64,000 nt of DNA. Source: Euglena gracilis (lineage: Eukaryota). The position numbers were made by a program, and so were the translations under genes. Positions 26,183 to 61,212 of this stretch are shown here, piece after piece; position 1 is the stretch's first letter, and each line of letters begins with the position of its first letter. The stretch lies in NCBI GenBank assembly GCA_039621445.1, contig CP154954.1, positions 36,813,703 to 36,877,702 on the forward strand. The letters run 5' to 3'. The notes beneath the pieces were generated by a model. It searched no databases. It was not told where the DNA came from and was given only the letters and a program-made list of their open reading frames with translations.

Positions 26183-26289
26183 TGGCCTCACAATGGCAAA
26201 GTGCGGAGCCCGAGGTGTCTCGTACTCCCTCGAGGCAGACCGAGAAGGGAGGAAGGGACACCGAGGGCGAAGCACAAAGACATTGTGAG
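26183..26289 (+). repeat. DIRS internal complementary region (ICR)
   Basis: tggcctcacaatggcaaagtgcggagcccgaggtgtc|tcgtactccctcgagg... is the reverse complement of the left terminus joined to the reverse complement of the right terminus. The junction is at 26219/26220. Confidence 0.93.
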
Positions 26290-26589
26290 CCCGACCCCCC
26301 CACCCATATAAGAAAATTTTGTCTGCAAACGCCCTGGATCAGAAGATGGGGGCCAGGGGGGGGGGAGGTGGGGGGGACCCCCCCCCAAGCAAAGAAACAA
26401 CGCCACGGTCGCCACGTCGGAGACAATGCAGCCAACTCCGGCGAGGCGGCACTAAGCGGGACCTCCTAACCCAGCGCACCAAAACAATCACAACAAACCG
26501 CCGGCGAGCAAGGCATGGCCTCACAATGTCTTTGTGCTTCGCCCTCGGTGTCCCTTCCTCCCTGGTCGGCTTGCCTCGAGGGAGTACGA

Positions 26590-30391: not shown

Positions 30392-30544
<153 letters not shown>

Positions 30545-35249: not shown

Positions 35250-35504
35250 CAGGGGTTTTTTTTAAGACCGAGGGGGGAGGGGGGGTCCCCCCCCACCCAC
35301 CCACCCCCTGGGGGGGGTCCCGGGGGACCCACAAAAAATGGCCGAAAAATCGCGAAAAGTGCTAAAAATAGATTTTTTTCGGCGCCTGCGGCGCCGAAAA
35401 GTATATCCCACCCCCATCGGGGGGGGCCCCCCCGGGGGGGGGGGGGGGGCTCGGCCGGACCCACCCTACCCCCCCCCGGGGGTCCACGACTTAAAAAACC
35501 CCTG
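35250..35504. mobile_element. hAT-like MITE family A
   Basis: TIR caggggtttttt...aaaaaacccctg with 8-bp TSD gtcccaaa on both sides. Confidence 0.9.
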
Positions 35505-37889: not shown

Positions 37890-38276
37890 CAGGGTTCGAT
37901 ATAAGGACAGGTGGGGGGGGGGGGCGGAGCCCCCCCCCTGGGGGCCAGGAGGGGGGGGTGGGGGGGGGACACCCCCCCACCTAAACAGGTGCGCGGTCAG
38001 GGTGGCCGAAAATTTTTGACCCCCCAAAACGACCAAAAGTGCCATTTTGGGCACTTTTTGGGCAAAAATGTGCCAAAAATGCAAAAAATTTTCGGCGCGA
38101 AGCGCCGGAGGAAAAAATTGACCCTTTTTGGGGGGGTCCCGGGAACCCCCCCAAGGGTAGGTCCGGACCCCCCTGGCAGGTGGGGGGGTGGTCCGGACCC
38201 CCCCCCCCTGCGGGCCAGGAGGGGGGGGACACCCCCCCCACCTAAACCATGTACGCCCTCCTTATATCAAACCCTG
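37890..38276. mobile_element. hAT-like MITE family B
   Basis: TIR cagggttcgatataagg/ccttatatcaaaccctg. TSD gtgggggg. Related copies at 31824-32896 (nested insert ~31990-32665) and ~59455-60019. Confidence 0.85.
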
Positions 38277-39440: not shown

Positions 39441-41409
39441 CCCAGATCGCGCCACTGTTCAGGTGGGGGGAGTATCCCCAGGATCATTGCAAAAAGCCTG
39501 AAATGGGAACATTTTTCTCGTGAACAAATGAAATCATTCAGTGTCTTTTGTGCACGTGGGCGGCAAATGGTGGATCAATCCAATACCAAAATGACAAAAA
39601 GAAAATATGGCTTTGACACACACCCCAGATTCTTCTTTGTTTGTTTTCAGCATATATTGTCCCCCACATGTTTTGGGAATGCTCACTTGACAGGGGGGGA
39701 ACCAGCAATGTAGGCCAAACAAGAGGTTTTGTTTGGACCAAATTTTGCAAAAAGCTTTTGCCAAAACTTTCCAGAAAATATCAACGTGCCCCGTTGATAT
39801 GGGGCAGGTTTTGAAACAACATAATCCAATGATATTTGCATCTGCGGCATTTTATTTTGAAACCGGTTATTCCAAAAACCCAGATTTCCCAAAAACCTCA
39901 AAATTTGCACAAAAATAATTTGTTCCCAAGAAATGACTCCATTTGGTGCATCTTCTTTGAACTATCACATACTCCTTCAAAACTATTATTTATAACTTTT
40001 GTATTTCTTCTGCTTGAAGGAGCAATGCACATTATGGGGATGGATGTGAAATGCTGCCAAAAAGTATTGAAAAGCCATGCTTGCATCGGTGTAAATGGAG
40101 CAAGATGCCCAGTTGAATAGAACTGGAAAGAAAATAGCCTTGATGGGATGAGACAAGAAGAGGAACAAAACTGCTGTTGCATACACACCACAACCCTCTT
40201 CCTTCCACTCTCCGGACCGGCACGCGCGCGTGTTCCAAAGATGATTCTAATTTTTGTGGCGTTTTATCTCAGCATTGTCTTGTCCCCCCCCCCAATTATT
40301 CCTGGAATATGTGGATACACCAGGAGAGGAAACATAAACACCTCAGAATGCAATTCAAAACAAGCAAAGTGTGCAAAAAGAACACAAAACACAAAAAAAA
40401 TGCAAAAGGGCACAAAATCATTCAGGGATTTCTTGGGGATGCACACTTTTCGACTCAAGAACATTTTCACCTATGCCACAAAAATTTAAGATTCTTGCAA
40501 CACAATGCATATTGATCAATGCATTCATTGAAAATTTCGTTCACACCATTCTAAACCCCCCCTAATAAGTGCACGGGTGCGCGCATTTTAAGGTAGTTTC
40601 GGACCGAAGGGGTGCGCACTTATTAGGGCAGTGCGCACTGTTTAGGGCAAAGCCGAAAATACTCTCGTTTCCCCCACTCTTTTTCAATTTTCTCCCATTT
40701 TGTGATTTCAAAGCTATGAGTCGCGTGATTATGTCTCAAATTTGGGCGGACGATAGAAATATTTGGTTTAGAAAGACAATTCTGAGAATCGTGTGTGCTT
40801 TCCAACCTGAGATGTTACCGTGATTTCTCCTTGGGGAGTTCACTTTTTAGGGAGGTAATTTCGGAACCTTGGGGGAGCACTTATTAGGGAACTGCGCACG
40901 ATTGGGGAACCGCGCACTTATTAGGGGGGGGGTTCACCAAAAAACATTGCATAGAAATATGAGCCAAAAAATGTTTTGCACATTTTTTTTTGAACAAAAA
41001 TGCGCAAAAATGTGCAAAAAATGTCCGTTATTAAAAAAATCAGCACAAAAAGTCAAAAAAAAAACATGCAAAAATAACACAAAAAGAAACACCAAGAGGA
41101 AAGTTACCAAAAGGAAGCATGGTCCAATCCAGCTAAAATCCAGGTCAGTTGGACCGATTTTGTTTTGAAATAAACCCCCCAGAAAACTATTCAAAATGGC
41201 CATTTTTTGCGCTTTGCGGTGCTTTGCGCTTTTCCAGCCACTCCAACTTTATTTCAGCAGATCCTGGAGGGTGGTCTTCAGCCTGGCTGGGAGCTGAAGA
41301 ATGTTGCCTGGCTGGACCCCCCCCCCCTGGAGGCACGGTCAGTTCCATGCCCTCCCAAAACGTGTTGCTGCCCAAACACCCTTTGCTTTGGACTGCTGAA
41401 CAGGAATTA

Positions 41410-42250
41410 AAATTAAAACCCATTTTTCTGGGCCCGCGGCCTGTCTTGATTTCTACTGACTTAAACGGAATTCAAACTGAAATTGTTTAGGTCAGTCGAT
41501 TTCCATTCAGGCGCCGTTTAGGTCAGTCGATTTCCATTCAATTGAAATCTGTTGCTGGTCAGATTCGGAATTTTTGGTGAAATTTTGGACGTTTTGGATT
41601 TCCACGTTTTTGGTCCTGTTGGGTTCTGGAAACTATTTGGACCGACAAAGGCTGAATTTTGCAGTCAGATGATCATAACTGGCTGAACTCAGGATGTCCA
41701 TTTTCATTTTCTGGAAATTCAGAATAACCATTTCTGTACAATTTGGCCAGATTCAGCTGTCATCACTGGTCGTCTGAAAGAGAATCTTTTGATCGAGGGG
41801 TGATTTTGCAACTGTTAAAACCTGTTTTCTGGGACTGACGCCTGTCTTGCAATTCTACTGACATTAAGGGGTTTCAGGCTGAAATTGTTTTGTCGATCCC
41901 GATCCCAATGGTCTAAACTCAGAATTTAAATTTCATTGGTCAAGAATTTGGGGAAATCTGGTTTTTGCCAAAAAATGCCCAAAATAGAACAAAAAAAGTT
42001 GGTTGATTTCCAAGACATTGGATGGAATCTGTTTAGGTCAATTGATTCCCATTCAGGCGCCCGTATAGGTTAATCAATTTCCCTTCAGGCGCCCGTTTAG
42101 GTCGGTCGATTTCCATTCAGGCGCCCGTTAATGGGCCAAAAACCACTTTTTTTTTGGCTATTTCCGTCCACGCGGTTCGGTCGAATGAAATTCAAGACAG
42201 GCGTGCGGGCCCAGACAAAATAGGTTTTAGAAAAATCGACCGACATTAAC
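41410..42250. mobile_element. TIR element with ~30-bp subterminal repeats
   Basis: ttttctgggcccgcggcctgtcttga versus tcaagacaggcgtgcgggcccagacaaaa. Repeats of ggtcagtcgatttccattcaggcgcc. Confidence 0.55.
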
Positions 42251-42704
42251 CAGGTCACCCAAGCCACTTTTGACAACCCCTGGCCGACCCCCCCCCCTGG
42301 GGGGGGGTTGGGCTCAAAACCAGTCAATCACTCTGTAAAACCAGTCAGTCAACCCCCAGGGGTCGGCCAGTGCTTCAGCAATTGACTGCATCCAACCCAA
42401 TCAGAAAAAACTTATGAGTCACTTTGTGTGTGAAAAAACAAACAAAACTGAGAACCTTAGACAGAAAAAATTAAGCAGAAACACAAGGGAAGTGATGTGA
42501 GACCTTGGAATAAGCACCCTGGGTGAAAAATCACAAAATGCCATCAATATACACTTCTGTCTGTTCTGTCATAGAGAACAGCGGTTTTGAAGAAATGCTG
42601 CAAATGCAGGCAAGCAAAGCATGAGGTCCTTGAGGGGGGAAAACACAGCCGACAGCCTCAAAAAATACTCAAAACTGAAAGATCAGCTTCGTCTTTGTCG
42701 CTGC

Positions 42705-42783
42705 TCACTGTTTCTCCTTCTGCTTGTGGAAAGTGATATCCAATGACCTGCCATCTAATGGAAATCCATTGAGTGCCTCAAGT
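42705..42783 (-). CDS. Terminal coding exon of the RRM gene
   Basis: Encodes (A)LEALNGFPLDGRSLDITFHKQKEKQ*, with the TGA at 42705-42707. Confidence 0.85.
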
Positions 42784-45700
42784 GAGGCCAAGCTTTGACT
42801 TAGAACAGCACACAAAATTAAACCGCCAAGCATAAAGAACTCAGCGAATACCCCCAAATAATCCACCTCTGAACCAGGGGTTTTTTTCAAGACCGGGGGG
42901 GGGAGGGGGTCCCGGGGGACCCACAAAAAAATGGCCGAAAAATCGCGAAAAGTGCTAAAAATAGAATTTTTTCGGCGCCTGCAGCGCCGAAAAATATATC
43001 CCACCCCCCTCCGGGGGGACCCCCCCGGGGGGGGGAGGGGGTCCGGCGGACCCACCCACCCTACCCCCCCCCCGGGGGTCCAAACTTAAAAAAATCCCTG
43101 CTCTGAACACAACCAAACAAATCTCCATATAAAATAATTACTCTCACAAACCGAAATAAACATACATCCATTTTCCTTGCTTCCTTTCCATCTATGTGGC
43201 ATGGGATATTGTGAAAATTGCATCTTTGTCTCACAATTTTCATATTTGCTCATTTTATGATGTTTGTTTTCATATTTTTTGTGAGTTTTCAATCTGTTTC
43301 AAAATTGGGGTTTTTTCCTGTTTTCTCCCTCAGCATGAGATTTGTCAAAAAAAACCTTTTTTGCTTCTGGAAAAAATTTTCTTCATGTTTTCCCTTTGTG
43401 CTGAAGACAATGGCTATCAAGCTGTGACGGGCTTGACTTTTTATGAAATAAATGTCGCTGAAACAGTGAAATTGACTCAAAGAGAAAGACATTGACTTCA
43501 ATTCTGAATCCACCATCAAATACCCTCAACCCCCCCAGATTGTCCCCTACCCCAAGATGGCCATTCGGCCTGGAAGAAGTTTTGAACCCCCCGTGCCAGA
43601 TGGGGAAAATTGGCCGGCGCTGGGGGGTCAGGTTGGGCCAAACAGAGGAGGGGGTAAAGTTGGGGGTGGCCAAATTCGGCCCACACAGCTCAGGGAGTCA
43701 ATAACCAGGGGCAGGGGGGTCAATACCCGGGGGAGGGGATAAACAAAACTCCTTTGGTGCCAAAAGCAACGAAAGCAGCAAAATTTCCAACGACAACAAA
43801 ATAATGAGTAAAGCTTGGGACAAAATCAAAAAGAATTATTGCCCTAACTACTAATGACTGTTTAAAAAAATACTCAAAAAAGGAACAATAAACCTTGAGC
43901 GACAAAAGAAAAATGTGCAAAATTGGGTGGTCCATGGTGGTCCATAACATGTGGAGCGATGCGCCAGGAGGTGAGAAATTTTGGTCCAGCGTTCGCGCAG
44001 GACCTGAAATGATTTGATTTTGGGGCCCCCTCCTTATGTGAAAGCCCCAATTGCGTACATTTTATTCTTCTGGAACAAGGCGCTGCAATTGCAAAAAAAA
44101 ACCCGAAATTTCCACTCGATTTTTTGTGTATTCACAGAAGCGAAGCAGGAAACATAGGGATTCTCTCCAGCCGGATGTTTTCGAAGGGCCTCAAGGGGTT
44201 TTAAAATTTGGAGAGGGGGTCAGGGCAGGTTTCTTGTTTGGATTTTCAAATATGAGACCCCACTTCCAGCCATGCTTGTGCTTACCAACCGGGGGGGGGG
44301 GGTGGGTGCTATAGGGTGCCTGCCCCTAGCAGGCCCCCCCCCCCCGGGGGGGGGGGATAGGGGTCCAGGCCGGACCCAGAACATTTTCATTGAAAATGGC
44401 CGTTTCCGGGCCCCCGGCGCCTTCGGCGCCGGGGTCGGAGGGGGGTGCCTGCTAGGGGCAGGCACCCTCCGAAACCCTACCCCCCCCCGGGGGGGGGGGT
44501 CGGATCGGGTGCTATGGGGTGCCTGCCCCTAGCACCCACCCCCCCCCGTGGGGTAGGCACCCGACTAAGCACAAGCCTGCTTCCAGCCATACATCTCTTT
44601 AAGGACCCCGGGGGGGGGTTGCTGGGCTAGGGCTAGAAATTTGGGCTGGCTAGAAATTTGGGCTGGCTAGCCCGCCCCCCCCCCCCCGGGGGGGGGGGCT
44701 AGGCCCCGGCTGGACCCGAACCGGGGCGAGCTGGACTGAAATCGGAAAAATGCCCAAAAATGACCTGCAGAACACAGTTTTGAAAAAATGATGCATCTGA
44801 AACCCCCCAAAAATGCCCCAAACGCCCCCCAAACCCCATTTTTGGCCACTTTTGAACACAATTTTTCAAAAAATTTCGGCTGGACCCCCCAAAAAGGGGC
44901 TGGCTAGCTGGGCTAGCAGCACCCCCCCCCGGGGGGGGGTGCTGCTGCGGCTGGGCTGGGCCCAAATCGGGGCTGGCTGCAGCCGCCCCCCCCCCCCGGG
45001 GGGGGTTCGCAAAACCTTAGAGATCTATGCTTCCAGCCTTCACTTTGCCTTGTTTTCTTTTTCTTGTCAAAAATCAGGCCACCGAGAAGAGGACATATAG
45101 TCGACAGTGGCAAGACCTCATCCGCATTGGCTAAGCTGATCTCGACATTCCCTCGAAATCTTGGCTGAAAAGAAAAAACCCACCTGGATTTGGGCCTTTT
45201 TGCCTGTTTCTGGGTTCCCGCCGGGTCCAGCCCAGTAGCTGGTAGGACCTCCCCTGGATCTCCCCCTCCCCGAGGGGTGGTAGAGCCTGAAACCTTTTTC
45301 CAGCCATCCATTCCCTGACAGCAACCCAGGGACAACTGCCCAGGGACATTCAAATTCCATCATTTTGCGGGTTTTTTTTGGAAATTTCAGCATTTTGGCG
45401 GATTTGCACTTTTCCACCAGAATCCCAAGACAACCTAAGATTGCGCGCTCCAGTTCAGTTTGCCCCAGTCAGATTGTTGCAGGTGAACAGAAAACCCCAA
45501 AAAAGTTTCAAAAAGGCTACTTTGGTCATTTTGATTCCTTTTTTCAGTTGAATCCGGCTTCGGCAGGCTGCAAAAAGTTTATTGCCGCTCGACCCCTTGG
45601 GGGCAGGAAGGCCTGGTGGGGGGGGGGTCGGACCCCCCACCCGGGAGGTGGGGGGGGTGGGCCGAAAATTTTGCTTTAGAAGAGATTGCTTGTACCCCAG

Positions 45701-48700
45701 AGTTTGCTGTCAGAGAAAAATTTTGGAAGCGGATGTGAAGTGTGGCCATCTCTGTGTGAATGTTTGACATTCCAATGCGAGACATTGAGGAACAGCTTTG
45801 GAGCAGTTTTTTGGAAGATTCCTTCGCCTCCCACATTTGTGAAACTTTGAGTGCTAGCTTTGCCCCACTTTTGGATGGAAGATGCGAAGTCATCTTGTAG
45901 GATCAATATGCAGACCATACATCTCTCTAAGGACCCCGGGGGGGGGGTTGCTGGGCTAGGGCTAGAAATTTGGGCTGGCTAGAAATTTGGGCTGGCTAGC
46001 CCGCCCCCCCCCCCGGGGGGGGGGCTGGACCCCGGCTGGACCCGAACCGGGGCGAGCTGGACTGAAATCGGAAAAATGCCCAAAAATGACCTGCAGAACA
46101 CAGTTTTGAAAAAATGATGCATCTGAAACCCCCCAAAAATGCCCCAAACGCCCCCCAAACCCCATTTTTGGCCACTTTTGAACACAGTTTTTCAAAAAAT
46201 TTCGGCGCTTCGCGCCGAAAAATTTTGGGCTGGACCCCCCAAAAAGGGGCTGGCTAGCTGGGCTAGCAGCACCCCCCCCCCGGGGGGGGTGCTGCTGCGG
46301 CTGGGCTGGGCCCAAATCAGGGCTGGCTGCAGCCGCCCCCCCCCCCCCCGGGGGGGTTCGCAAAACCTTAGAGAGATGTATGATGCAGACCCTTGAAGAC
46401 ATTCCCACCAACTCCATTTGAATCTTAACATCTGCTGTGAAATTTTCAGTTCCTTGGTTCAGATTGTTTCAGACGGGTTTCCCTGCAAAATTGTCCATCA
46501 GGGCCTAAATTTCATGGGCAGGGGTTTTTTTAAGACCGGGGGGGTCCCCCCCCCCACCCACCCACCCCCTGGGGGGGGTCCCGGGGGACCCACAAAAAAA
46601 TGGCCGAAAATCGCGAAAAGTGCTGAAAATAGAATTTTTTCGGCGCCTTCGGCGCCGAAAAATATATCCCACCCCCCTCCGGGGGGACCCCCCCAGGGGG
46701 GGGGGGCTCGGCCGGACCCACCCACCCTACCCCCCCCCAGGGGGTCCATGACTAAAAAAACCCCTGTTCATGGGTCAGAGGGGCCAATTATTCATGTCCC
46801 CGGGGGCCCTAAAGATACGTCCTCCATTCTCCCATTTCCTGCCCGGCGGGGGGCCAACGAAAATGTCCGGCCGGGTCCAACAATTGTGTCTGTCGGCTGT
46901 AAGGCGGGACCCCACCATTGCCCTCCAGGGGGGGGGGGTCCAGCCAGCCAGCCAGCACTTTTTTTCCCAGTCAGCAGCTCCAAGTTGGGCTGCAACCCCC
47001 CCCCTTTCCGCGGGCACCGATTTTTAGGTCAAAGTTTTCCTTCGGCGCCGAAGGAATTCTCTTTGAGCAGGTGCCATGGTGGGTGGGGGGGTCATGGTGG
47101 GTTTTGTGATCACTGCGCATCATGCAAGCCAGAGGCAACCGCTAATATGACGAGACGCACTGCTCTTAAACATTTGGGGCTCTGTGGTCACCTTCAAATT
47201 TTTTTTTAAAAAACCAAAAACGGTTTTTGGGGTTTTTTTATGATCCTCTTTTTTCAAAAAAAAAAAACTCTAGCTGTGGAACCAGACAGGGGGTCCTGGA
47301 CATCCTCAACCCTATCCTATGGACCAAACCTGTCCACCTAAAAATTCACAAAAAATGTCTTTTCCAGAATAAATTGTTGCTTTTCCAGGAACCTCACCAA
47401 CCTGTCACAAATGATTCTCCAACGTTCAGGAAAAAACGGCTCCGTGGTTCATCACCAGGTGATCTAGGACGCAAAATGGATATCATCTGGATTTGATGAA
47501 TCACAAATCGTTCTGGTTGACGAACGTGCAATATCATTCACTTAAAATGTTTGTTTCAGACCTTTGTTTTGTGAAACCCGACAAAAGAAAATCTCTGTTT
47601 TCCGGGTTTTGTTATTCTAAAAGAAGTGGCCCGGGTGGCATTTCCCCTCCCTCATTGGCCAAAGAAGGGGTGCAGCCCGCCAAGGGGCGGTGTTGATGCA
47701 ACCAATTTACCCTTGAAGTGTTTACACGTCTGCACCTCACAACCCAATAGCAAATAAGCAGTTCGTGGAGGTCTAGTCTGCTCCTTGCAGTCTTTTCCAT
47801 CCACCCAGAAAAACGTCATTGGTCTCACACAGAAGTGTCCACGGGGGCTCAACAAAAATGCCTTTGGGGGTCTAAATTTCTCGTCCACCGGGGATCAATA
47901 ATTGTGTCCGTTTCTCGGGAATGTGTTCGTGAGGGACAACAAAACTTGGCCGGGAGGGATCTTCATTTTGTCCAAAATTCCCTACTCGGGTGTCCGCTAG
48001 CTGTAAGAAAGTCCCTGGTTGTCATGCAGCCCCCCCCCCCCCACCCCACCCCAGGAGGCTGTCCTAAAGGTTTTCAAATATTTTCCACACGCTGTATAAA
48101 TGGGTTGCTGGTCAGAGTTGTAAGAACCCATGGGAGTGTGGGGGATAACAGCAACTACCACGTTGGGGCGCTTCTGAGGATCCTCTGTGTCAAAGCTTGT
48201 CTGCAGCCCTCGCATCAGCTGCCCTCATGAATTTTGTTGGTAGCCCCCTTAATCAAGAAAACCTTCATCAAAATAAACCACCCACCCATCACCCCATTAC
48301 TCCAGCATGGGGCTCGCATAGGGGGGCAGGGTATTAATGAGAGAGGGGAGGGGGGAGGGGGGTTGTCCTGGACCCCCTCCCCACTGGGCTTAAAAAAAAC
48401 CGGTGAAGCGTGGAAAAATTTTTGAGGGGCTTTAAAAAAAATGCCCAAAATTGTGTTTTCAGGTGATTTTTTTCTCCAAAATGACAACGGCCCTGGGGGG
48501 AAGGGGGGTGGTCTGGACCCCCCCGCACAAAACCAACGCTCACTTGATACCCTGCGGGGGGAGTGAGGGTTCGTTATAAAAGCAGGTGGGGATGGACAAA
48601 AAAAAACTTTGACCGCCAGAATTTTCCCAGAATATTTTCAGCACATGTTGTCGAAAATGCAAAAAAAATTCTGCGCAAAGCGGCAGAAGGAACAAATTTG

Positions 48701-51700
48701 AGCTTTTAGGTGGGGGATGGTCCCGGGTACTCCCTCTCCTGGGTGGATCAGACAAGAAGGAGATTGAAAACCACATTATTCCAGCCAAATCAGAAATACA
48801 CCTCAAACTTTGGACCACATGCTCCCCATCCCCAATACAGCAAAAAAGCAGAGCGTTTGTGAAAAGAACACGCACACATGTCAAAATGCGAGTGTTTCGT
48901 GCATTTTAATAGATACCTGAGTCAGACAGTACACAGTTTTAGCAATCTTTTGGTCTCTTGAACCATTTGATAAGAGAGGGTTGAGCCAGAGAACACTTGG
49001 CGCATAAAACAGAGTGTTTCCCGTCAACAGAAGTCCAAAAAGCCTATTTTTTTACACCCGGCGCAAAGTGCCGAAGGTTTTTGGGGCCGCACACAAGGGT
49101 AATTAATTAGATCCAATTAGATGGTGGGTGGGCAAGGGGTGGGGGGGGTAATGGTGGCGGTGGTGCTGGTAGGATTATTGAATTGCATTGTACCTTCCCT
49201 GACAAGTCTGAGGATTTAACTCACAGACAGCCAGCATGGTCCGGGAACAGAATGATCCTCCCCCAATTTATTGTGCGTGTGTGTGTGTGTGTGTGTGCCC
49301 GACGGGGGGTCATACCCTGACCTGCAACCCCCGACCGGGGGGGGGGGTCGCGCAACCAGGTGCCAAAAAAACCTGGTTATTTCAGGTCAACTACAACCCC
49401 CCGGGGGGGCTGCTGCTGCTGCTGTTAAACTCTCCCCCAAATAATACCCCCCCCCCTCAGGGTCTGACTTCGGCCGCCAAAATAATACCCTCCCAGGCTT
49501 TTGCTTAAGGAACCCCGGGGGGGGGGGTACTGGCTAGGCAATCGGCTAGACACTGGAAAAAAATGGACTAGCTAGACCCCCTCCCCCCCCCGGGGGGGTC
49601 CGGGGGTCCCCCCAACTGGAAAAAATTTTTCCTCCAGCGCTGCGCGCCGAGGTAAAAATGAGGTTTTTAACAGATTTTTGGCTGATTTTGTTCCAAAAAA
49701 TTACCAAAAAATGGCCATTTTTGGGGGTCCCCAAAAAAAAATTCCGGCGCTTCGCGCCGGTCACTGGAAAAAAATTTTTCACTACCAATTTTCCACTACC
49801 ATGCCCCCCCATATAAGACCCCCGGGGGGTACTGCAATCCCTTAAGCAGAAGCCTGCCCCCCCCCCCCGGTGTCGGGACGAAGGCCCAGGTTTTTGACCT
49901 GAAAATGTAGGTAAAAAATACAGTTTCTGACAACAAATTACGAAAAAAAAATTGATTTTTCTGGATGGCCTCAAAAAAAAAGCTAAATTTCATGAGAAAG
50001 TACAAAAAATGACCCCAAAGGGGAGTTTTGGCGCTATTTTTGCTCCTACGGAACTCCAAAAAATTTCAATTTTTTTTTCGGAATTATACCCCCCCCCCCC
50101 GGGCCGGGACTTCGGGCGAAAAAATGATACCCGGGGGGGGGGTGTTATTTGGGGGGGGGTTTACCACTGCCCTGCCATCAGCACTATTCCCTCAAACATA
50201 ATACTAAAGATATAAACATTGGTGGTGGTGTTGTTGTTATTGTTGTTGATTATTCTTATTATAATTCACTTTGCTTTTATTGTTTATTGATCATTTTGAC
50301 ATCAAATTGTTTCATTCACCATGAGAAATTGATGATGAACTGCATTAAAGATACTTAGAGGGCTAGGCACAAATCCGTAACCCTTGGATAAACCACGACT
50401 GAAATCCATTTCGACACGAATGGAGGCAATTGCTCCAAATTGAGCAAAAAGACGATACATAGCAAGCTCATCCACATTGCTGGATAAAGACGGAACCAGG
50501 CTTCTTTTTAAGACCGTGTCCTGGTCTGTGAACCACAGCCCCTGCCCCCCCCTTCTTTCAGGTAACCCTTGATCTTCGACACCGCATTGCAGCATCGAAG
50601 AGTGGGCGGAGGTGAGGTGTGTCCGTTAAAAACAAAAAAAATGGTGACTCCATGCTACTTTTGACTCACGTTTTACTCACCATTTCAGAGTCCTTTTACT
50701 ATAAGCCATAGGTACGGCAGAAATGTCCAAAAATCAGACCCTCCTGAATGTGTGCCAAAAATCGGGTCGTTTCAGGAAGCGATTTCCTGCTTCATTACTC
50801 TCCTGATTTCACTGTTCTGAGTTAAATAGAAGCCCGAACCGAACGAATAAATTTGAGCCCTCCTCAGGGGCTTCGGCGCTCACCACAGGGATGTGAACTT
50901 GCTTGTTGCGCAATTGCATTGGAATTGTTGCATATGCAAAATCTTGATACGGATCCAAAGCTGGATAGGTGTAACTTCGCCCAAGTGGATGTTGTCCACC
51001 AAACACAGATGATGCCAGGGGATTATAGAACACCATGGGGGAGCAGGCTGGCGGAAAACACTGGCAATCCCTTCAACCCCACTCCATCCCCTCAGAAGCA
51101 CGGACTTGAAAAAGAGGAAACTTAAAAGCAGAGCTGGTGTGAGGCAAAACAGTCTACCCGTCAGAGGTTCTCAAGGACCCAAGGGGGGGGGAGTCCCATG
51201 GGCCGGCTGAAAAAAAAGTGCTGTCTGGACCCCCCCCTTAATTCGGAACCCCCTGAAGCAGGGCAGAACGGGAAAGCCTGGTGGGGGGGGTCCGACCCAC
51301 CCCCACCCAGGAGGTGGGGGGAGGGTCGGACCCCCCCACCCACCATAGCGTTTTCACCAATTTTGGGAAAGCGGGGATTTTGGCCGGGGAAATTTTTTTG
51401 AAAAATGAACCCAAAATACATGACTTTTTTTTATGGAAAACCACATATTTTTTTTCACAAAAAAAATCTCGAAAATTTTAGGTTTAAAAATTAGGTTTAG
51501 GTTTAAATTTTAGGTTTAAAAAAAAAGAGAAGTGTGGAAAAAAAAACGAAGGTCAAAAAAAATTGGTCAAAATTTTTTTGGCACACTCGAATTTTACTGA
51601 AATTTTTTTCTTGGAAATTTTTGGATTTTCAATGGCATTTTTTTGCTTCAAAAACCTCTCAAAATCAAAATTTTGAGAAAATGTTGAAATTTTGGAAGGT

Positions 51701-54700
51701 GCGAAAAAATGGGGGTTTGGGGGTTTTGTAACCTGCGACTGAGGGGTGGTCGTAAATGAGGGGTGGTTGAAATACAAAGGGGGGGGGCAGGTGATGTGAG
51801 GGATCAGAGAGAAAGGACCAAAACAATTTCAGTACCCAAGGCGGTTTTGAACCATTGCTCAAAATTTATCCCCAAAATGACAATTCTATCATAAATACTC
51901 AGTCGATGCCGGGGGGGGGGGGGTTGCAGTCCTGCTGGAAACTGGAAGCTGCTGGCAAGGGGTAATCAATAATTGGCGTTCATAAATGGGGGCCATTCTG
52001 GCTTCAGGAATCCCCTGGAAGGCATGTAGAATTGTGGGTTTGCGTCGCGAAAATTTCTCTTCTTTGAAATAAACAGCATCTCCACGAATGCAAGCGTTGA
52101 AAAAATGAATGCAAAAAAAACTGATGTCCTTCCTGCGACCATTCAATTTGGCCAAACAACGCCCCCGTGACGCCTGCAACTGAGGGGGAAAGGGGGAAAA
52201 TGCCTGCAGCTGAGGGGGCCCCCAGGATTTTCTTGAGGCCCGGGGGGTCCTGTGGGAGGGCTGCTGGAAGAAAGGTGCTGGCTGGGCTCCGTGCGGATTC
52301 CTGGGGGTGCTCATCCTGGGGGTGATGCCGACCTGTGGTCGGCCCGACCCCTGTTGGTGGGATACCGACCTCTGGGGGTCGGGCCGACCTGGTCGGCCCG
52401 ACCCCCAGAAATCCGCATTACCCCCCCCACCTTTTGGAAAATTAAGCCCCCCCCCCTTCGTTTGAATAGATGAATTGTTATGTGAGGTAAAAATTTAATT
52501 AAAAAAATGAGAAAAAAACCCTTTTATCTGCCAACCCCTTTCATTAACAAAATAAACCCCTTTTATCCGCCAACCCCTTTTCGGGTGCAAGTCGACCTAA
52601 CCCTATCCCTTTCGTTAACAAAATAAACCCCTTTTATCCGCCAACCCCTTCTCGCATGCAAGTCGACCTAACCCTATCCCTTTCATTAACAAAATAAACC
52701 CCTTTTATCTGCCAACCCCTTTTCGGGTGCAAGTCGACCTAACCCTATCCCTTTCATTAACAAAATAAACCCCGTTTATCTGCCAACCCCTTCTCGGGTG
52801 CAAGTCAACCTAACCCTATCCCTTTCATTAACAAAATAAACCCCTTTTATCTGCCAACCCCTTTTCGGGTGCAAGTCGACCTAACCCTATACCTTTCATT
52901 AACAAAATAAACCCCTTTTGTCTGCCAACCCCTTCTCGGGTGCAAGTCGACCTAACCCTATCCCTTTCATTAACAAAATAAACCCCTTTCATCTGCCAAC
53001 CCTTTTCGGGTGCATGTTGATCTCGTCTTTTGGAAACCCGGGGGGGGGGGAGCTTAAATTTCCAAGTCGACCTAAACCATCCCTTTCATTAACAAAATAA
53101 ACTTCTTTTATCTGCCAACCCCTTTTCGGGTGCAAGTCGACCTAACCCTATCCCTTTCATTAACAAAATAAACCCCGTTTATCTGCCAACCCCTTCTCGG
53201 GTGCAAATCGACCTAACCCTATCCCTTTCATTAACAAAATAAACCCCTTTTATCTGCCAACCCCTTTTCGGGTGCATGTTGATCTCGTCTTTTGGAAACC
53301 CGGGGGGGGGTTAAATTTCCAAAGAGGGGGGGGGTAATGCAGATTTCTGGGGGTGATACCGACCTGGTCGGCATCACCCCCAGGGGTAGTTACCGACCTG
53401 GTCGGCCCGACCATGGTCGGGCCGACCAGGTGGTCGGGCCGACCAGGTCGGCATCACCCCCAGGATGGTCACCCCCAGGAATCCGCCCGGGGCCTGCTGG
53501 CTGGGCCGGCTGGCTGGGAGCTGGACTCAGCAGGTATCCAAAAAGTGCCCAAAAACACCCAAATCCAGCTGGGTTGGCATTACTCAGCCAAATTTTGAGG
53601 TGAAGGTCCAAAAAACCACCCAAAAATGAAATTCTGGGCCATTTTTGACCCGTTTCCAAAATTTTCGGCTGCTTGTGCCGAAATCATTTTCAATAAAGCC
53701 TGGTTTTGGAAGGAGGGGACCCTGCCTGCCCCAATGTGTTCGACCCACAATCTTGGAAGGCACATTTGAATGGGAGAAGACGGTGGATGGGCAGGGTATA
53801 AAATGAGATGGGGAGGAGGGGGTTCTGGAACCCTCCCCCAGAGGGGGTGAGTCAGCCCCCTCCCAGAGCAAAAAAATTCAGCACAAAATGCCAGAAAATC
53901 TTTGGGCCTTGAAAAAAGCCCAAAGGTGAGTGGCTTGGGTGGACCAAAAAAAGGCAACAACCAAAACAGTATTTCATTGCTGTTATAATCGTGGTGAACA
54001 GCAGCATTATGGAGTCAAAAAGAATGCTTTTAAATGAACTTTCCCAAATACTCAACGGCATTGTTTTTGAAAAATTGTGATTGTTCAAAAGGAAAAAGTG
54101 CCAACCTTCGTATTGGCTTCTGTTTCATGGCTGGTGGCCTTGGTCAGTGGATGTTTCTTTCAGGGGGGGGAATAATTGATATCGGAGGCCTTCGGAAAAA
54201 TTGCGGAAAAATTGCGGAAAAATTGCGGAAATTGCGGAAAAATTGCGGAAAAATTGATATCGGGTATACACATTTCTGTCTGAGGGGACTTAGAAATTTT
54301 TCAATTGTGAGGTTCAGAACACCGCAACACCCACGTCGATGCAGGCGAGCACAAATCAACACGCTTGATGTTTTTTGCACAGGTGGGACGCACCCAATCC
54401 TGTGACCAGTGGTGCACCTGTGAGAAAAATTGGTAAACTGGGGGGGGAAAAAACAAAACGCAATAGCACACCTGTTGATACATTTGAAGAATGGCTTGAA
54501 CTCATTGCATCTTCCATCTTCGGTGGTGGGAAAAAAATTCTGCGGAAAAAAAATGGGAAAAAATTGCGGAAATTGCGGAAAAATTGCGGAAAATTGCGGA
54601 AAATTGCGGAAAATTGCGGAAATTGCGGAAAAATTGCGGATATCAATTTTCCCCCCCTGTTCTTTTTTAAAAAAATTGAACTGCAAGCAATCAGAAGGGG

Positions 54701-55018
54701 CACAGGGCAACCAGCAAGGCAAGACAACGATGAATGGGCGGGGGGGGGGGGGAATGGAGAGCAGGAGGGAGATGAAAAAGGTGGGGCAGGATACAGAAGC
54801 ATGTCCCCATTTTGAAAACCATCAAATGAAATCTGACAAAGAGAAACACTCGCAAGATTGTGAGCTGTCGTGTGCCTGCTGCTTTCGCAGCTTGGATCGA
54901 GGATTGTCAGCTGGCTTCAATTCCAAAGGTTTATCATGCCCCTCAATGTATGTGCCATTCAATGCTTTGATGCAATTATCAGCATCCTCAGCCGCTGTGA
55001 ATTCAATGAGTCCATATC
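42705..55018 (-). CDS. Spliced multi-RRM RNA-binding protein gene (ELAV/Hu- or CELF-like), 3' part; exons at ~54876-55018, 50840-~51059, 50369-50491, 48203-48235, 42705-42783
   Basis: Joining the last four exons gives an uninterrupted RRM: EEGSNLFVR|SLSSNVDELAMYRLFAQFGAIASIRVEMDFSRGLSKGYGFV|KFMRAADARAA|LEALNGFPLDGRSLDITFHKQKEKQ* (RNP2 NLFV, RNP1 KGYGFV, LNG motif). All three junctions are phase 2. An upstream exon encodes the C-half of another RRM. The 5' exons were not located. Confidence 0.85.
42875..43100. mobile_element. hAT-like MITE family A
   Basis: Same TIR and body as 35250. TSD ctctgaac. Confidence 0.9.
44271..44579. mobile_element. hAT-like MITE family D
   Basis: TIR catgcttgtgctta/taagcacaagcctg. 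TSD cttccagc. Confidence 0.9.
44588..45029. mobile_element. hAT-like MITE family C
   Basis: TIR catacatctct.taagg. TSD cttccagc. Confidence 0.9.
45916..46382. mobile_element. hAT-like MITE family C
   Basis: Perfect 17-bp TIR catacatctctctaagg. TSD atgcagac. Confidence 0.92.
46519..46766. mobile_element. hAT-like MITE family A
   Basis: TSD ttcatggg. Confidence 0.9.
48203..48235 (-). CDS. 33-bp micro-exon of the RRM
   Basis: Encodes (V)KFMRAADARA(A). Found because both of its flanks are complementary to the neighbouring exon flanks, and it keeps the frame. Confidence 0.85.
48236..50368 (-). other. Nonconventional intron, 2133 bp
   Basis: Starts gcc-TAGCCCTCT and ends AGGGGGCTA-ccaac. 9-bp stem (8 WC plus 1 G.U) in the same +4/-6 register. 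Confidence 0.8.
49494..49856. mobile_element. MITE with caggctt(t/c)tgcttaagg TIRs, nested in a family E element (~49425-50163)
   Basis: caggcttttgcttaagg ... ccttaagcagaagcctg. Confidence 0.75.
50369..50491 (-). CDS. Exon: RRM core (123 bp)
   Basis: Encodes SLSSNVDELAMYRLFAQFGAIASIRVEMDFSRGLSKGYGF(V), containing RNP1. Confidence 0.9.
50492..50839 (-). other. Nonconventional (intermediate-type: GT start, non-AG end) intron, 348 bp
   Basis: Starts gtt-CGGGCTTCTATTTAA and ends TTAAAAAGAAGCCTG-gttcc. 13 of 15 positions pair Watson-Crick plus one G.U. CTG lies at -8..-6. Confidence 0.85.
50840..51059 (-). CDS. Exon: inter-RRM linker plus RNP2 of the terminal RRM (5' boundary uncertain, 51036-51059)
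   Basis: ORF 50809..51036 ends ...VSAEAPEEGSNLFVR. The 3' boundary at 50840 is fixed by frame and by intron-end pairing. Confidence 0.75.
52293..53486. mobile_element. TIR element carrying a 71-bp tandem array
   Basis: Long imperfect TIRs gcggattcctgggggtg.../...cacccccaggaatccgc. Confidence 0.75.
52520..53290. repeat. 71-bp minisatellite, ~10 units
   Basis: Unit tttcattaacaaaataaaccccttttatctgccaaccccttttcgggtgcaagtcgacctaaccctatccc starts at 52610, 52681, 52752 and so on. Confidence 0.95.
54161..54659. mobile_element. TIR element with a 6-bp TSD carrying aaaattgcgg arrays
   Basis: TIR cagggggggg.a..aattgatatc/gatatcaatttt.cccccctg with ttcttt on both sides. Confidence 0.8.
54876..55018 (-). 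CDS. Exon encoding the C-terminal half of an upstream RRM (boundaries approximate)
   Basis: Manual minus-strand translation: YGLIEFTAAEDADNCIKALNGTYIEGHDKPLELKPADNPRSKLRKQQ, resembling ELAV/CELF RRM2 (ALNG...KPLxVKFAD type). An in-frame TGA directly upstream limits the exon start to 55018 or below. Not in the ORF track. Confidence 0.75.
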
Positions 55019-55184
55019 ACACCATTGTCCCCAACATGGGTGGATGGAATGGAGGTAGACTCCAAAATGTCTTCCTATGCGAGCTAAACCCCCCCAGATA
55101 ATACCCCCCCCGGGGGATTATTTTTTTCGCCCGAAGTCCCGGCCCGAGGGGGGGGGGGGGGCTCCCGGATCTGGCATGGGGGGG

Positions 55185-56460
55185 GGTTGTGGGGATCGAC
55201 CATGGTCGGCCCACGGTTGCCTCGGTCGTGGGGGGGTCGACCGAGAAGGTTGTGGGGGTCGACCGAGGGCGACCATGGTCGACCCCCACCCCACAGACGG
55301 ACCCCCCCTTTTTTGCAAGGTTGGTCGCCCTCGGTCGACCCACACAACATGACCGTCCATGTTCGCGGGCCCCAAGACAAACAAAATTTTTTCAATCCAT
55401 TTTGGGAGGCAAATCCCCTTTGTTGCCCAACTGTCTGCCCAAATCCCTTGTGCTACCCACCCGTTTTCCGGGGCAAATCCCTTTTTGTTGCTCAACTGTT
55501 TGAGGGCCCCAAAAAAACAAAATCCCTTGTGTTAGCCACCTGACGGGTGGGTAACACAAGGGGATTTGTTATTTTGGGGCCCTCGGACAGTTGAGCAACA
55601 AAGGGGATTTGCCCCCCAAAACTTGAGGGTAACACAAGGGATTTGTTATTTCGGGGCCCTCAAACAGTTGAGCAATAAAGGGTATTTGCCCCCCAAAATG
55701 GGTGGGTAACACAAGGGATTTGCTCCTCAAAACGGGTGGGGAACACAGGGGCAAATTCCCCTTGTTGCTCAACTGTTCAAGGGCCCCAAAATAACAAAAT
55801 CCCTTGTGTTACCCACCATACATCTCTTCAAGGACCCCGGGGGGGGGTTGCTGGGCTAGGGCTAGAAATTTGGGCTGGCTAGCCCGCCCCCCCCCCGGGG
55901 GGGGGGGGGGGGGGGGGCTGGGCCCCGGCTGGACCCGAACCGGGGCGAGCTGGACTGAAATCGGAAAAATGCCCAAAAATGACCTGCAGAACACAGTTTT
56001 GAAAAAATGATGCATCTGAAACCCCCCAAAATGCCCCAAACGCCCCCCAAACCCCATTTTTGGCCACTTTTGAACACAATTTTTCAAAAAATTTCGGCGC
56101 TTTGCGCCGAAAAATTTTGGGCTGGACCCCAAAAAAAGGGGCTGGCTAGCTGGGCTAGCAGCACCCCCCCCCCCGGGGGGGTGCTGCTGCGGCTGGGTTT
56201 GCCCCAAATGGGGGCTTGCTTCTGCCGCCCCCCCCCCCCCCGGGGGGTTCGCAAAACCTTAGAGAGATGTATGTTACCCACCCCCTTTGTGGGGGTCGAC
56301 CGAGGGCGACCGACCTTGGAAGGGGGGGGGGTCCAGCTGTGGGGTGGGGGTCGACCATGGTCGCCCTCGGTCGACCCCCACAACCGCAGCTCGGTCGCCC
56401 TCGGTCCCCCCCACGACCGAGGCGACCGCGGGCCGACCATGGTCGACCCCCACAACCCCC
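55185..56460. mobile_element. Foldback element with ~160-bp TIRs of gtcgaccgagggcgacc motifs
   Basis: 55190-55345 is the inverted counterpart of 56285-56460. Internal inverted aaatcccttgtgttacccacc repeats. Confidence 0.7.
55817..56273. mobile_element. hAT-like MITE family C
   Basis: TSD ttacccac. Confidence 0.9.
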
Positions 56461-57228
56461 CCAGGCCAAATCTCACCCCCCCCCGAGGGGGGGTATTATT
56501 TGGGAGGGGTATTATTTCCCAAAAATTTTCAAAATTTTTTCAAGTCCCCCAAAACCCAAAATAGCACCCAAAACCCCCTTTGGGGTCATTTTTTGTCCTT
56601 TCTCAAAAATTTAGCATTTTTGGAGGGCAGATGATCGCAATTTGTTGTCAGAGATTGTGATTTTTACCCAAATTTCCAGTCAAATTCCGGGTCGTCGGCC
56701 CAAGATTTGGGGGGGGGTATTAATTCGGTGGCCGAAGTCGGACCCCGAGGGGGGGAGGGTATTATTCGGGGGGAGGGTTTAATCCACCCCCCCCCCAAAT
56801 ACAATCCTGGGATTCTGGGGTCTGATTTTTGGAAGAGTGCACTTTTTGGATTTTTTTTGTTGAAAATTTTGGATTACAGCTTTGGCCTGATGCCAGCAAT
56901 TTGGCCCACAGTGTGCCAGAATTCTGGCCACTTCCACCATGAATAAATGAAACCAACACATCCCCTCGCAATTGGAAAAAAGGGGGGGAAATGCCGAAAA
57001 TTTTGTTTAATCTTGGCCTTTCCATCAAATTTTGGAGGTCTCATTATATTGTTTGGATCCGGGTTGTGGGGGGGGGTCACGGGGATGAAAAACCCCATCC
57101 TATTAACCATTTTTTTTGAAAAAAATGCGATTGTTTTGTTGTTTTGATTTTTGTGAATTTTGTTTTTTGGTGCTTTTAAGATTCAGTTTTTGAGTTTTGG
57201 GAATTTTCAGCAGTTTGGGGCTCTAGGC

Positions 57229-60901: not shown

Positions 60902-61212
60902 CATGCTTGTGCTTACCAACCGGGGGGGGAGGGGGGGGTGCTATAGGGTGCCTGCCCCTAGCAGGCACACCCCCCCCCGGGGGGGATAGGGGTCCGGGCC
61001 GGACCCAGAAAATTTTCATTGAAAATGGCCCTTTCCCGGCCCCCGGCGCCTTCGGCGCCGGGGTCGGAGGGGGGTGCCTGCTAGGGGCAGGCACCCCCCA
61101 AAACCCTACGCCCCCCCCCCGGGCCGGGGGGGGGGGTCGGATCGGGTGCTATGGGGTGCCTGCCCCTAGCACCCCCCCCCGTGGGGTAGGCACCCGACTA
61201 AGCGCAAGCCTG
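60902..61212. mobile_element. hAT-like MITE family D
   Basis: Same TIR and body. TSD gatgggag. A partial copy is at ~33660-33805. Confidence 0.9.

Follow-up and report, generated by a model that had tools for sequence, protein, structure and literature searches.

A 348-nt nonconventional intron in an RRM-protein gene of Euglena gracilis and its probable origin from a MITE with 8-bp target duplications

An RRM-protein gene of Euglena gracilis carries a 348-nt intron, here called Ic, that is a true euglenid nonconventional intron. Its most likely source is a MITE, a short nonautonomous DNA transposon, with CAG...CTG ends and 8-bp duplications, of a class that abounds in the window, that is, in the whole 64-kb stretch of DNA analyzed here. 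We put the probability of this origin at roughly two in three. It is suggested by the ends of Ic, whose likeness to the termini of window MITE families extends past the CAG/CTG trinucleotide, and by a putative 8-bp duplication, matching at 6/8, that straddles the two splice junctions.

Splice junction and geometry of intron Ic

The junction of Ic is documented by a single contig from a run whose RNA nature is guessed (X17, record 9), which joins 50369-50489 to 50838-51010 with no letters between and so skips the intron, and a DNA contig (run X1, record 7) is unbroken over 50267-51235, Ic included. No run with the locus is recorded as RNA; X15-X20 are guessed to be RNA. The share of sampled words of the locus is 0.30 in six presumed-RNA runs from 4 studies, which by our own count equals the exon-only share, and 0.87-0.90 in 14 presumed-DNA runs. 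Since Ic is present in all 14 presumed-DNA runs listed, no presence/absence polymorphism is visible. The raw RNA runs X21 and X24 have no joints at Ic among 15 of 763 rows listed, which speaks neither for nor against the junction. Euglenid nonconventional introns leave the RNA as full-length circles without the spliceosome, and no back-joints of such a circle are found among these 15 of 763 rows. Read depth is present over Ic in run X24.

Because an A and a C are common to both sides, the junction slides by 2 nt and allows three equivalent registers, one of them with spacers of 3 and 5 nt, the others placing the intron at 50491-50838 or 50490-50837 with identical mRNA. The borders in the three registers are gt..cc, tt..cg and tc..gt, and GT-AG, GC-AG or AT-AC occur in none. 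The mRNA alone cannot choose between them; the 3+5 register gives the spacers gtt and gttcc and an exon G, so that the intron reads GTTCG|gtt CGGGCTTCTATTTAAC ... GGTCTTAAAAAGAAGCCTG gttcc|GTC on the minus strand. An earlier sequence-only reading had predicted a cDNA junction in just this register, which is among the three compatible with the contig; the intron was borne out, and the span of 50484-50847 given in that reading takes in 8 nt more on each side.

The splicing code of Nomura et al. 2025 is 5'-N3CDG-/-CH'GN5-6|R, and splicing needs, and suffices with, spacers of 3 and 5(-6) nt, CAG/CTG or CGG/CTG, a further complementary stretch and an exon purine (PMC12501133). In the same work CGG-CTG introns were spliced in knock-ins, as were synthetic 50-bp introns (PMC12501133). 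Ic carries CGG at +4..+6 and CTG at -8..-6, with a G-U pair, which fits CDG/CH'G, and the 3-nt donor spacer, the 5-nt acceptor spacer and the exon purine are all present in the 3+5 register. The two arms of its inverted repeat are identical at 15/20 positions and at 10 of the first 12. In the minimum-energy fold U-CGGGCUUCU is paired with AGAAGCCUG-G, leaving the spacers beside the stem, and the terminal stem is 10 bp long in the minimum-energy and centroid folds alike (fold z-score -2.28; 2/100 shuffles as stable). Ic belongs with the nonconventional introns of euglenids (Milanowski et al. 2014, 2016; Nomura et al. 2025), having the same geometry and no difference in kind, and what it adds to them is ends that match named repeat families present in its own genome.

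The exon downstream of Ic matches RRM_1 in a single-exon Pfam search (E = 7.6e-7, profile positions 6-43), the upstream exon used as a protein query against longer proteins gave no match, and no Rfam family was found in 40000-56500. The 3+5 geometry is possible in each of the gene's six introns, in agreement with the sequence-only reading, which had described 3 nt, a stem, and the stem partner plus 5 nt for three of them. A motif of the published code is present in only two of the six, Ib with CAG/CTG and Ic with CGG/CTG, and the trinucleotides of the other four are GAG/TTC, TAG/CTA, CAA/TTG and AAA/TTT. Published junctions have the consensus Y|R at both ends, with A at exon +2 in 43/55 and C at exon +3 in 30/55 (PMC4770533). 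In this gene A stands at exon +2 after one intron of six, and the exon after intron If starts with a pyrimidine. The junction evidence for Ib is the end of a contig piece at 51010 and a loose end at 52043.

Table 1. Intron Ic, the neighbouring exons and introns of the RRM-protein gene, and the catalogued MITEs (positions in the window; exon letters in capitals where junctions of Ic are given)
Feature	Positions	Strand	Details
Intron Ic, nonconventional, 348 nt	50492-50839	minus	3+5 register; within second RRM
Ic 5' inverted-repeat arm	50817-50836	minus	CGGGCTTCTATTTAACTCAG; starts at intron +4; weight-matrix p = 5e-4 (positions 4-20 only)
Ic 3' inverted-repeat arm	50497-50516	plus	reverse complement CAGGCTTCTTTTTAAGACCG; ends at intron -6; weight-matrix p = 2e-5
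Ic upstream copy, putative 8-bp target duplication	50837-50844	minus	GTTCG exon + gtt intron
Ic downstream copy, putative 8-bp duplication	50489-50496	minus	gttcc intron + GTC exon; 6/8 against upstream copy
Exon 5' of Ic	50840-51010	minus	ends ...NLFVR; from contig piece 50838-51010 and reading frame
Exon 3' of Ic	50369-50491	minus	SLSSNVDELAMY...GYGFV, part of RRM; from contig junction
Intron Ia, 2811 nt	52044-54854	minus	tgc|GAGTGTTTCTCT...AGAGAAATTTTC|gcgac; flanks 0/8; loose end 52043 reads into exon 54855-54884
Intron Ib, 1010 nt	51011-52020	minus	ttc|CAGGGGATTCCTGAA...TTCTATAATCCCCTG|gcatc; 5' junction inferred; flanks 3/8
Intron Id, 2133 nt	48236-50368	minus	gcc|TAGCCC...GGGGCTA|ccaac; junction cannot slide; flanks 0/8; from record arithmetic, 34 nt between contig pieces
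Mini-exon, 34 nt, KFMRAADARAA, inferred	48202-48235	minus	contig positions 654-687, on no listed piece; from length, frame and RRM fit; last base common to next exon
Intron Ie, 5.4 kb	42784-48202	minus	aga|CAAGCTTTGAC...GTCAAAGCTTG|gcctc; stem 11/11; flanks 4/8; nested MITEs
Intron If, in 3' untranslated region	40162-42591	minus	ttc|AAAACCGCTGTT...AACAGCAGTTTT|gttcc; flanks 4/8; loose end 42591 in X24 and X17
MITE, family A	46519-46766		CAGGGGTTTTTTTAAGACC...CTG; perfect 8-bp duplication TTCATGGG
MITE, family A	35250-35504		duplication GTCCCAAA
MITE, family A	42875-43100		duplication CTCTGAAC; inside intron Ie, 91 nt from acceptor
Element of 1327 bp, family-A-like ends	36530-37856		ends CAGGGGTTTTCTTAAGG; duplication 7/8
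MITE, CAT...ATG family	45916-46382		ends CATACATCTCTCTAAGG...ATG; duplication ATGCAGAC
MITE, same CAT...ATG family	55817-56273		duplication TTACCCAC
MITE	44271-44579		ends CATGCTTGTGCTTA / CAGGCTTGTGCTTAG; duplication CTTCCAGC
MITE, family of 44271-44579	60902-61212		duplication GATGGGAG
MITE	37890-38276		ends CAGGGTTCGATATAAGGAC; duplication GTGGGGGG
Element	3181-3848		ends CAGRGCAGAACGGGAA; duplication 7/8
MITE	49494-49856		ends CAGGCTTTTGCTTAAGG...CCTTAAGCAGAAGCCTG; flanks 5/8, low-complexity sequence

Target duplications and superfamily of the MITEs in the window

When 450 CA..TG inverted-repeat pairs were scored for flank repeats, nine had an 8/8 match and 3 a 7/8 match, against 1, 2 and 1 (8/8) and 0, 2 and 0 (7/8) in controls with shifted flanks. 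The pairs at 14421-14754 and 26236-26573 were set aside as cases of target duplication, because their flank 8-mer CCTCGAGG is palindromic and may belong to the inverted repeat. After this exclusion there are 8 elements with a perfect 8-bp duplication and 2 with 7/8. In an unconstrained scan over repeat length k, a (TA)n array dominated the odd values of k, and only the subset of pairs with a CA start was used; its 100 pairs have exact flank repeats at k = 8 (5 cases) and none at k = 5-7 or 9-12. In addition, the ninth flank base is mismatched in 9/11 elements, and all four perfect cases of a scan with unconstrained termini begin with CAG or CAT. These counts show that the MITEs in the window duplicate exactly 8 bp, as the sequence-only reading had held for elements with CAG/CAT...CTG/ATG ends.

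The termini are CAG...CTG in 7/11 catalogued elements, and 4/11 have a CAT end, which lies outside the published code. In the six CAG...CTG elements whose duplication is clear, its sixth position is a purine. With these termini and this purine, these MITEs possess every element of the code that was shown to suffice with synthetic introns (PMC12501133). Splicing of a MITE copy was not seen, young exonic copies included.

By our own count of the ten duplications, position 2 is T in 7/10, position 6 a purine in 9/10, position 7 A in 6/10 and position 8 C in 4/10. Ends that start with a CAG-like sequence are typical of hAT elements, and the window elements share with hAT MITEs the 8-bp duplication and the short TIRs and may share an nTnnnnAn-like target, the fit to which has a by-hand binomial p of ~0.004 for T at 2 and ~0.02 for A at 7 in this small sample. 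The duplications of Hermes, a hAT element, follow nTnnnnAn, and for the 15 integrated elements tabulated our own count gives 9 with a final C and 7 with a final AC (PMC2803484). The assignment to hAT is thus a structural one, as no transposase is linked to the elements: reading by eye the 48 ORFs of at least 170 aa in the window, we found no transposase ORF. P and Merlin elements likewise duplicate 8 bp, and Merlin, with conserved terminal 5'-GG-3' and 8-9-bp duplications, is the DNA transposon reported with 8-bp duplications in E. gracilis itself (PMC8101967). The window elements could belong to Merlin or P, which would leave the origin of introns from MITEs intact and make the hAT label wrong. 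We consider this unlikely, as they start with CAG or CAT and not GG, their ninth flank base is mostly mismatched, and T at position 2 and A at position 7 would fit the nTnnnnAn target. Of the hAT label given in the sequence-only reading, the 8-bp duplication stands, and the superfamily itself lacks a transposase in the window and competes with two others that also make 8 bp.

MITE-like intron ends and the origin of Ic

The 3' end of Ic matches the MITE terminus at 46519 at 17/20 positions and the right-hand terminus of the element at 49494-49856 at 14/16 (own count); both figures agree with those of the sequence-only reading. Among CAG-anchored Markov sequences, a match of at least 17/20 with one or another of 22 MITE ends has a probability of 3e-5, and one of at least 16/20 has 5.3e-4. 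Outside the catalogued ends, 13 of the 2209 CAG-anchored 20-mers reach at least 16/20, and two of these are the intron ends of Ic and Ib, the latter matching the MITE end at 37856 at 16/20. Most of the remaining eleven open with the terminal motif of a catalogued family and look like uncatalogued MITE ends. A weight matrix built on positions 4-20 of the MITE ends, leaving out the trinucleotide, gives empirical p values for the two ends of 2e-5 and 5e-4 for Ic, 0.0015 and 0.019 for Ib and 0.002 and 0.025 for Ie, so that in three of the gene's six introns the likeness to MITE ends goes further than the trinucleotide. No such resemblance is found at the ends of Id (p 0.44-0.48) or Ia (0.05 and 0.32). 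A blastn search of the 64-kb window with the interior of Ic gave 1 match, to itself, so that no further copy is present there and membership of Ic in a family is read from the ends.

The flanks of Ic agree at 6/8, the value given earlier, which between 8-mers 300-6000 nt apart is reached or exceeded by chance with an empirical P of 0.0076 (a value for a single pair, six introns having been compared). The other five introns have 0, 0, 3, 4 and 4 of 8, and the sum over the six is 17/48 (p 0.13). The 4/8 reported before for the 5.4-kb intron was recovered, as was the lack of a match for the 2.1-kb intron (0/8). For the age series built on these values, flank identity and end similarity are not significantly correlated (Spearman 0.62, p 0.19, n = 6). 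As a whole, the proposal that the MITEs act as introners is partly supported, by the nonconventional intron, the MITE-like ends and the 8-bp duplications, and not by the splicing of a MITE copy, a repeated interior or a significant age series.

Here we propose that Ic arose by transposition and that its spacer lengths would reflect the 8-bp staggered cut of a transposase. In the pre-mRNA, the two inverted-repeat ends would pair into a stem, and a non-spliceosomal machinery would cut 3 nt before its 5' strand and 5 nt after its 3' strand, adjoining the exon purine. Since 8 bp are duplicated on insertion and 3 + 5 = 8, such a cut would remove the element together with exactly one copy of the duplication and thereby restore the reading frame. 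A wider reading, which we find evenly balanced, is that the splicing code is an RNA-level mirror of one class of transposon, the 3/5 spacers deriving from the 8-bp duplication, the stem from the pair of TIRs and the exon purine from position 6 of the target.

The resemblance might instead exist without descent, as introns and MITEs would both need a hairpin closed by CAG/CTG, or the MITEs might stem from introns mobilised by a transposase, with 3 + 5 = 8 being a coincidence of an enzyme that measures the helix. The stem and spacers are indeed functional requirements themselves, complementarity and not sequence is reported as conserved among introns (PMC4770533), trinucleotides other than CAG/CGG occur in 4/6 introns here, and a symmetric nuclease could account for the Y|R pattern of the two cuts. 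However, the 17/20 match includes TTTTTAAGACCG and goes well past what pairing needs, the matrix without the trinucleotide gives a p of 2e-5, and non-coding MITE copies have perfect 8-bp duplications that differ from one another, which points to transposition at the DNA level. We therefore regard likeness without descent, or descent in reverse, as quite unlikely.

Very improbable, in our view, is an old nonconventional intron whose junction repeats came from double-strand-break repair or chance and whose acceptor was later taken over by a MITE fragment. Such repair was proposed by Milanowski et al. 2016 for the eight-nucleotide direct repeats at the junctions of a gapC intron newly gained in one E. 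agilis strain (PMC4770533). MITEs do nest in introns of this gene, as at 42875-43100, close to the acceptor of Ie, and at 51251-51728, where a MITE of another family lies in Ib, and the 3' arm of Ic is more MITE-like than the 5' arm. Yet the 5' arm is MITE-like too and pairs with the 3' arm, and the 6/8 flank match falls exactly in the register predicted by a duplication. Given these points, we favor the origin of Ic from a CAG...CTG MITE.

Relation to earlier proposals and meaning for euglenid introns

A MITE origin of nonconventional introns was proposed in 2014 (PMC3935182), and the TIRs and TSD-like repeats of such introns were described in 2024 (PMC11282704). As the sequence-only reading says, a MITE resemblance had been suggested before, the suggestion being in print from 2014 to 2025 (PMC3935182, PMC11282704, PMC12501133). 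Those papers, like the present study, treat the inverted repeats as TIRs, the junction repeats as TSD-like and the insertion into an exon as the source of an intron; the passages covered here leave the transposon family, the duplication length and the superfamily unnamed (PMC3935182, PMC11282704, PMC12501133). Here, in contrast, the proposed source is a concrete one, MITEs with CAG...CTG ends and duplications of 8 bp, a length to which the 3+5 spacing is linked. In 2014 euglenid transposable elements were said not yet to be identified (PMC3935182), and in 2025 the origin of nonconventional introns was called unclear (PMC12501133). A point against the proposal is that in E. agilis short direct repeats flank conventional introns too, and 84.4% of all introns are slidable; slidable introns were left out of the published junction logo (PMC12501133). 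The idea of a MITE origin, the TIRs, the TSD-like repeats and the eight-nucleotide repeat beside a recently acquired intron are already in the literature. In the main texts of the literature searched, no paper connects an 8-bp duplication with the 3+5 spacing, and neither hAT-like MITEs in Euglena nor MITE families as a source of introns are named, and by that measure the 3 + 5 = 8 link and the named MITE families are new here.

The introners of Micromonas and Aureococcus (Huff et al. 2016, Gozashti et al. 2022; PMC11282704) are alike in that TIRs and TSDs supply or co-opt splice signals, so that insertion into exons is tolerated, and differ in being spliceosomal with GT-AG borders, whereas the code here is non-spliceosomal, with cuts inside both copies of the putative duplication. 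The introner elements of Amoebophrya (PMC7789003) are non-canonical introns with 8-20-nt inverted repeats, direct repeats over the exon/intron borders and a hairpin that joins the exon ends; their direct repeats, however, measure 3-5 nt and no inverted repeat specific to a family was found, in contrast to the 8 bp and family-specific ends found here.

If the mirror reading of the code is true, the splicing machinery acts as a scarless eraser, and CAG...CTG MITEs could spread through coding exons, which would account for the introns of Euglena being mostly nonconventional. Several published and so far unexplained facts would then follow, namely the direct repeat of 8 nt found where an intron was newly gained, the Y|R pattern of the two junctions, exon starts with R-A-C and a high share of slidable introns.

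Papers up to 2025 treat the origin of these introns and the reason for their odd 3/5 spacing as open questions, which a MITE source, if true, would make directly testable. It would add a non-spliceosomal case to the concept of introners and would explain how a genome can reach ~70% non-canonical introns. The evidence from Ic provides concrete support for an older idea on the source of such introns.

Removal and anatomy of the 348-nt intron

Intron Ic, one of six introns (Ia-If) in a minus-strand gene that encodes a protein with two RNA recognition motifs, is a real intron, the junction being given by an assembled contig and by word shares. Record 9 of the contigs of run X17 (1315 nt; a run guessed to be RNA) aligns as 42591-42782, 50369-50489 and 50838-51010, with zero extra letters joining the last two pieces, and a DNA contig (X1, record 7) spans 50267-51235 without a break. 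In addition, of the 31-mers sampled from 50300-51100, a share of 0.30 occurs in six guessed-RNA runs (four studies), which by our own count is the expectation for the two exons alone, and a share of 0.87-0.90 in 14 guessed-DNA runs. Owing to two shared bases, the placements 50490-50837, 50491-50838 and 50492-50839 yield identical mRNA, and GT-AG, GC-AG and AT-AC ends are absent in all three. The site lies between an exon ending in NLFVR and one starting with SLSSNVDE; in exon 50371-50490 a Pfam RRM_1 match (E = 7.6e-7) covers profile positions 6-43, and exon 54855-55016 carries the end of a second RRM_1 (E = 7.2e-5).

The arms of Ic (from +4 and up to -6) match each other at 15/20 positions, UCGGGCUUCU is paired with AGAAGCCUGG in both the minimum-energy and the centroid fold, and the fold has z = -2.28, with equally good folding in 2 of 100 shuffles. 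Ic fits the published nonconventional code, 5'-N3CDG-/-CH'GN5-6|R, in its CGG-CTG variant, which was spliced when tested in a 2025 study; the study also proved the 3- and 5(-6)-nt spacers, showed that the code is sufficient, and calls the origin of these introns still unclear (PMC12501133).

In the size-fractionated RNA reads of X24, the bin 50416-50749, about three quarters intron, has a mean depth of 4.89 vs 4.27 in the neighbouring exon-rich bin, with equal strand bias in both; in the RNA reads of X21 the mostly intronic bin is much lower (0.5 vs 2.8). The X24 depth could reflect unspliced precursor or a stable excised, perhaps circular, intron. At 50959 and 50967 the window has A and RNA reads have G; the X1 DNA contig also has G at 50959, which is therefore a strain difference, and has A at 50967, where G in 7/9 X24 and 3/9 X21 reads may be allelic variation, strain variation or editing.

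The six introns of the gene

Introns of the RRM gene. The last column gives empirical p values for the two ends from a weight matrix of positions 4-20 of 22 MITE ends (trinucleotide excluded; background, the window); the two ends of an intron are not independent of each other.
Intron	Position	Strand	Length	Ends	p, two ends
Ia	52044-54854	minus	2811 nt	tgc|GAGTGTTTCTCT...AGAGAAATTTTC|gcgac	0.05 and 0.32
Ib	51011-52020	minus	1010 nt	ttc|CAGGGGATTCCTGAA...TTCTATAATCCCCTG|gcatc	0.0015 and 0.019
Ic	50492-50839	minus	348 nt	GTTCG|gtt-CGGGCTTCTATTTAAC...GGTCTTAAAAAGAAGCCTG-gttcc|GTC	2e-5 and 5e-4
Id	48236-50368	minus	2133 nt	gcc|TAGCCC...GGGGCTA|ccaac	0.44 and 0.48
Ie	42784-48202	minus	5.4 kb	aga|CAAGCTTTGAC...GTCAAAGCTTG|gcctc	0.002 and 0.025
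If	40162-42591	minus	2430 nt	ttc|AAAACCGCTGTT...AACAGCAGTTTT|gttcc	0.07 and 0.33

The 3+5 geometry, in which cuts fall 3 nt before the 5' stem strand and 5 nt after the 3' one, is allowed by all six introns and is fixed for Id and Ia, since their junctions do not slide; four of the six have trinucleotides outside the published code. If, which is of the nonconventional type and lies in the 3' untranslated region, departs from the purine rule of that code: in all of its registers the first base of the downstream exon is a pyrimidine. From record arithmetic, frame and motif, rather than from aligned pieces, we deduced the 34-nt mini-exon 48202-48235 and the 5' junction of Ib.

The sequence-only reading had arranged three of these introns as an age series. 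The introns were reproduced, as were the matches between their flanks (6/8, 4/8 and no match, here 0/8), but the series was not established, because the rank correlation between flank identity and end similarity over the six introns is 0.62 (p 0.19); summed flank identities are 17/48 (p 0.13). In E. agilis, 84.4% of all introns, conventional ones included, are flanked by short direct repeats (PMC12501133).

Some of the introns hold repeats of their own, namely a 71-bp tandem repeat of about 10 units in two blocks in Ia (52536-53310), a nested copy of the 3181-3848 repeat family in Ib (51251-51728, 75-89% identity) and nested MITEs in Ie (42875-43100, 44271-44579, 45916-46382 and 46519-46766).

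MITEs with eight-base duplications

The window is nuclear DNA with many repeats and numerous G- and C-runs. Two related copies of what is probably a retroelement family, at 9010-13109 and 21929-26040, have long ORFs on both strands that carry reverse-transcriptase-like motifs (such as YLDDVLLVA). Long microsatellites occur as (TG/CA)n at 2500-2700 and as (TA)n at 30399-30522, the (TA)n tract skewing unconstrained inverted-repeat scans.

That the MITEs here start with CAG or CAT and carry 8-bp duplications, as had been claimed, was borne out. Among 965 terminal inverted-repeat pairs scored with terminal bases unconstrained, four had perfect 8-bp flank repeats (shifted-flank controls, 0 and 1); each of the four has CAG or CAT as its first three bases. 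Under more permissive criteria, 450 CA..TG pairs were scored, with 8/8 flanks in nine and 7/8 in three (controls: 8/8 in 1, 2 and 1; 7/8 in 0, 2 and 0). Once two elements whose "duplication" was the palindrome CCTCGAGG were left out, eight with a perfect and two with a near-perfect duplication remained, and these belong to at least five end-families. In a set of 100 CA-start pairs, flank repeats that were exact numbered five at k = 8 and none at k = 5-7 or 9-12, and the ninth flank base was mismatched in 9/11 elements. A repeat family with ends CA(A/G)(A/G)CCGA..AGGGAGGAAG has two copies (14421-14754 and 26236-26573), both flanked by CCTCGAGG, which may be part of the inverted repeat or a preferred target.

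The 11 catalogued elements end in CAG...CTG (7), CAT...ATG (2) or CAT...CTG (2). By our count, the ten duplications have T at position 2 in seven, a purine at 6 in nine, A at 7 in six and C at 8 in four; those of Hermes (hAT) read nTnnnnAn, with 9 of 15 tabulated integrated elements ending in C and 7 in AC, again by our count (PMC2803484). The DNA transposons described in E. gracilis are Merlin elements with 8-bp duplications, whose ends have a terminal GG that the window MITEs lack (PMC8101967). In a DNA run, MITE-bearing bins have a summed contig depth of 10^5-10^6, where the listed unique contigs have roughly 125-185; the figure is not a copy number and shows only that MITE sequences are very common. 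Four otherwise different end-families have in common a TAAGG / TTAAG(A/G)(A/C)C block, near positions 12-19, which suggests that one transposase group mobilises all four; no transposase ORF was seen in the window.

Intron ends and MITE ends

The 3' end of Ic matches the end at 46519 of family A, the MITE end-family that includes 46519-46766, at 17/20 positions, and 16/20 positions agree between the 5' end of Ib and the MITE end at 37856. Outside the catalogued ends, 16/20 was reached by 13 of 2209 CAG-anchored 20-mers, two of which are the Ic and Ib ends; most of the other eleven begin with the terminal motif of a catalogued family and resemble MITE ends that the catalogue lacks. A match of at least 17/20 has a chance of 3e-5, and one of at least 16/20 a chance of 5.3e-4, judged from 200,000 CAG-anchored Markov sequences. 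Fairly counted, three of the six introns are MITE-like beyond CAG/CTG. No second copy of the Ic interior was found in the window, and no MITE copy undergoing splicing was seen.

MITE-like insertion was put forward as a source of nonconventional introns in 2014 (PMC3935182) and again in 2016 (PMC4770533), 2024 (PMC11282704) and 2025 (PMC12501133), the 2024 review treating CAG/CTG as terminal inverted repeats with TSD-like repeats at junctions. The 2016 study ascribed the eight-nucleotide direct repeats at a newly gained gapC intron to break repair, and reported Y|R at both junctions, with A at exon +2 in 43/55 and C at exon +3 in 30/55 (PMC4770533). In the literature searched, mostly open-access main texts, we found no link drawn between the 3+5 spacing and a duplication of 8 bp, and no mention by name of CAG...CTG MITE families or hAT-like elements in Euglena.

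The observation made in the sequence-only reading was confirmed, and its interpretation, that MITEs with 8-bp duplications became euglenid nonconventional introns, is the published hypothesis in sharpened form. New in it are the concrete MITE families, the end homology and the arithmetic by which a 3+5 spacing equal to the 8-bp duplication would make excision scarless. Ic is probably MITE-derived, and the 3+5 = 8 arithmetic would account for several published, unexplained regularities.
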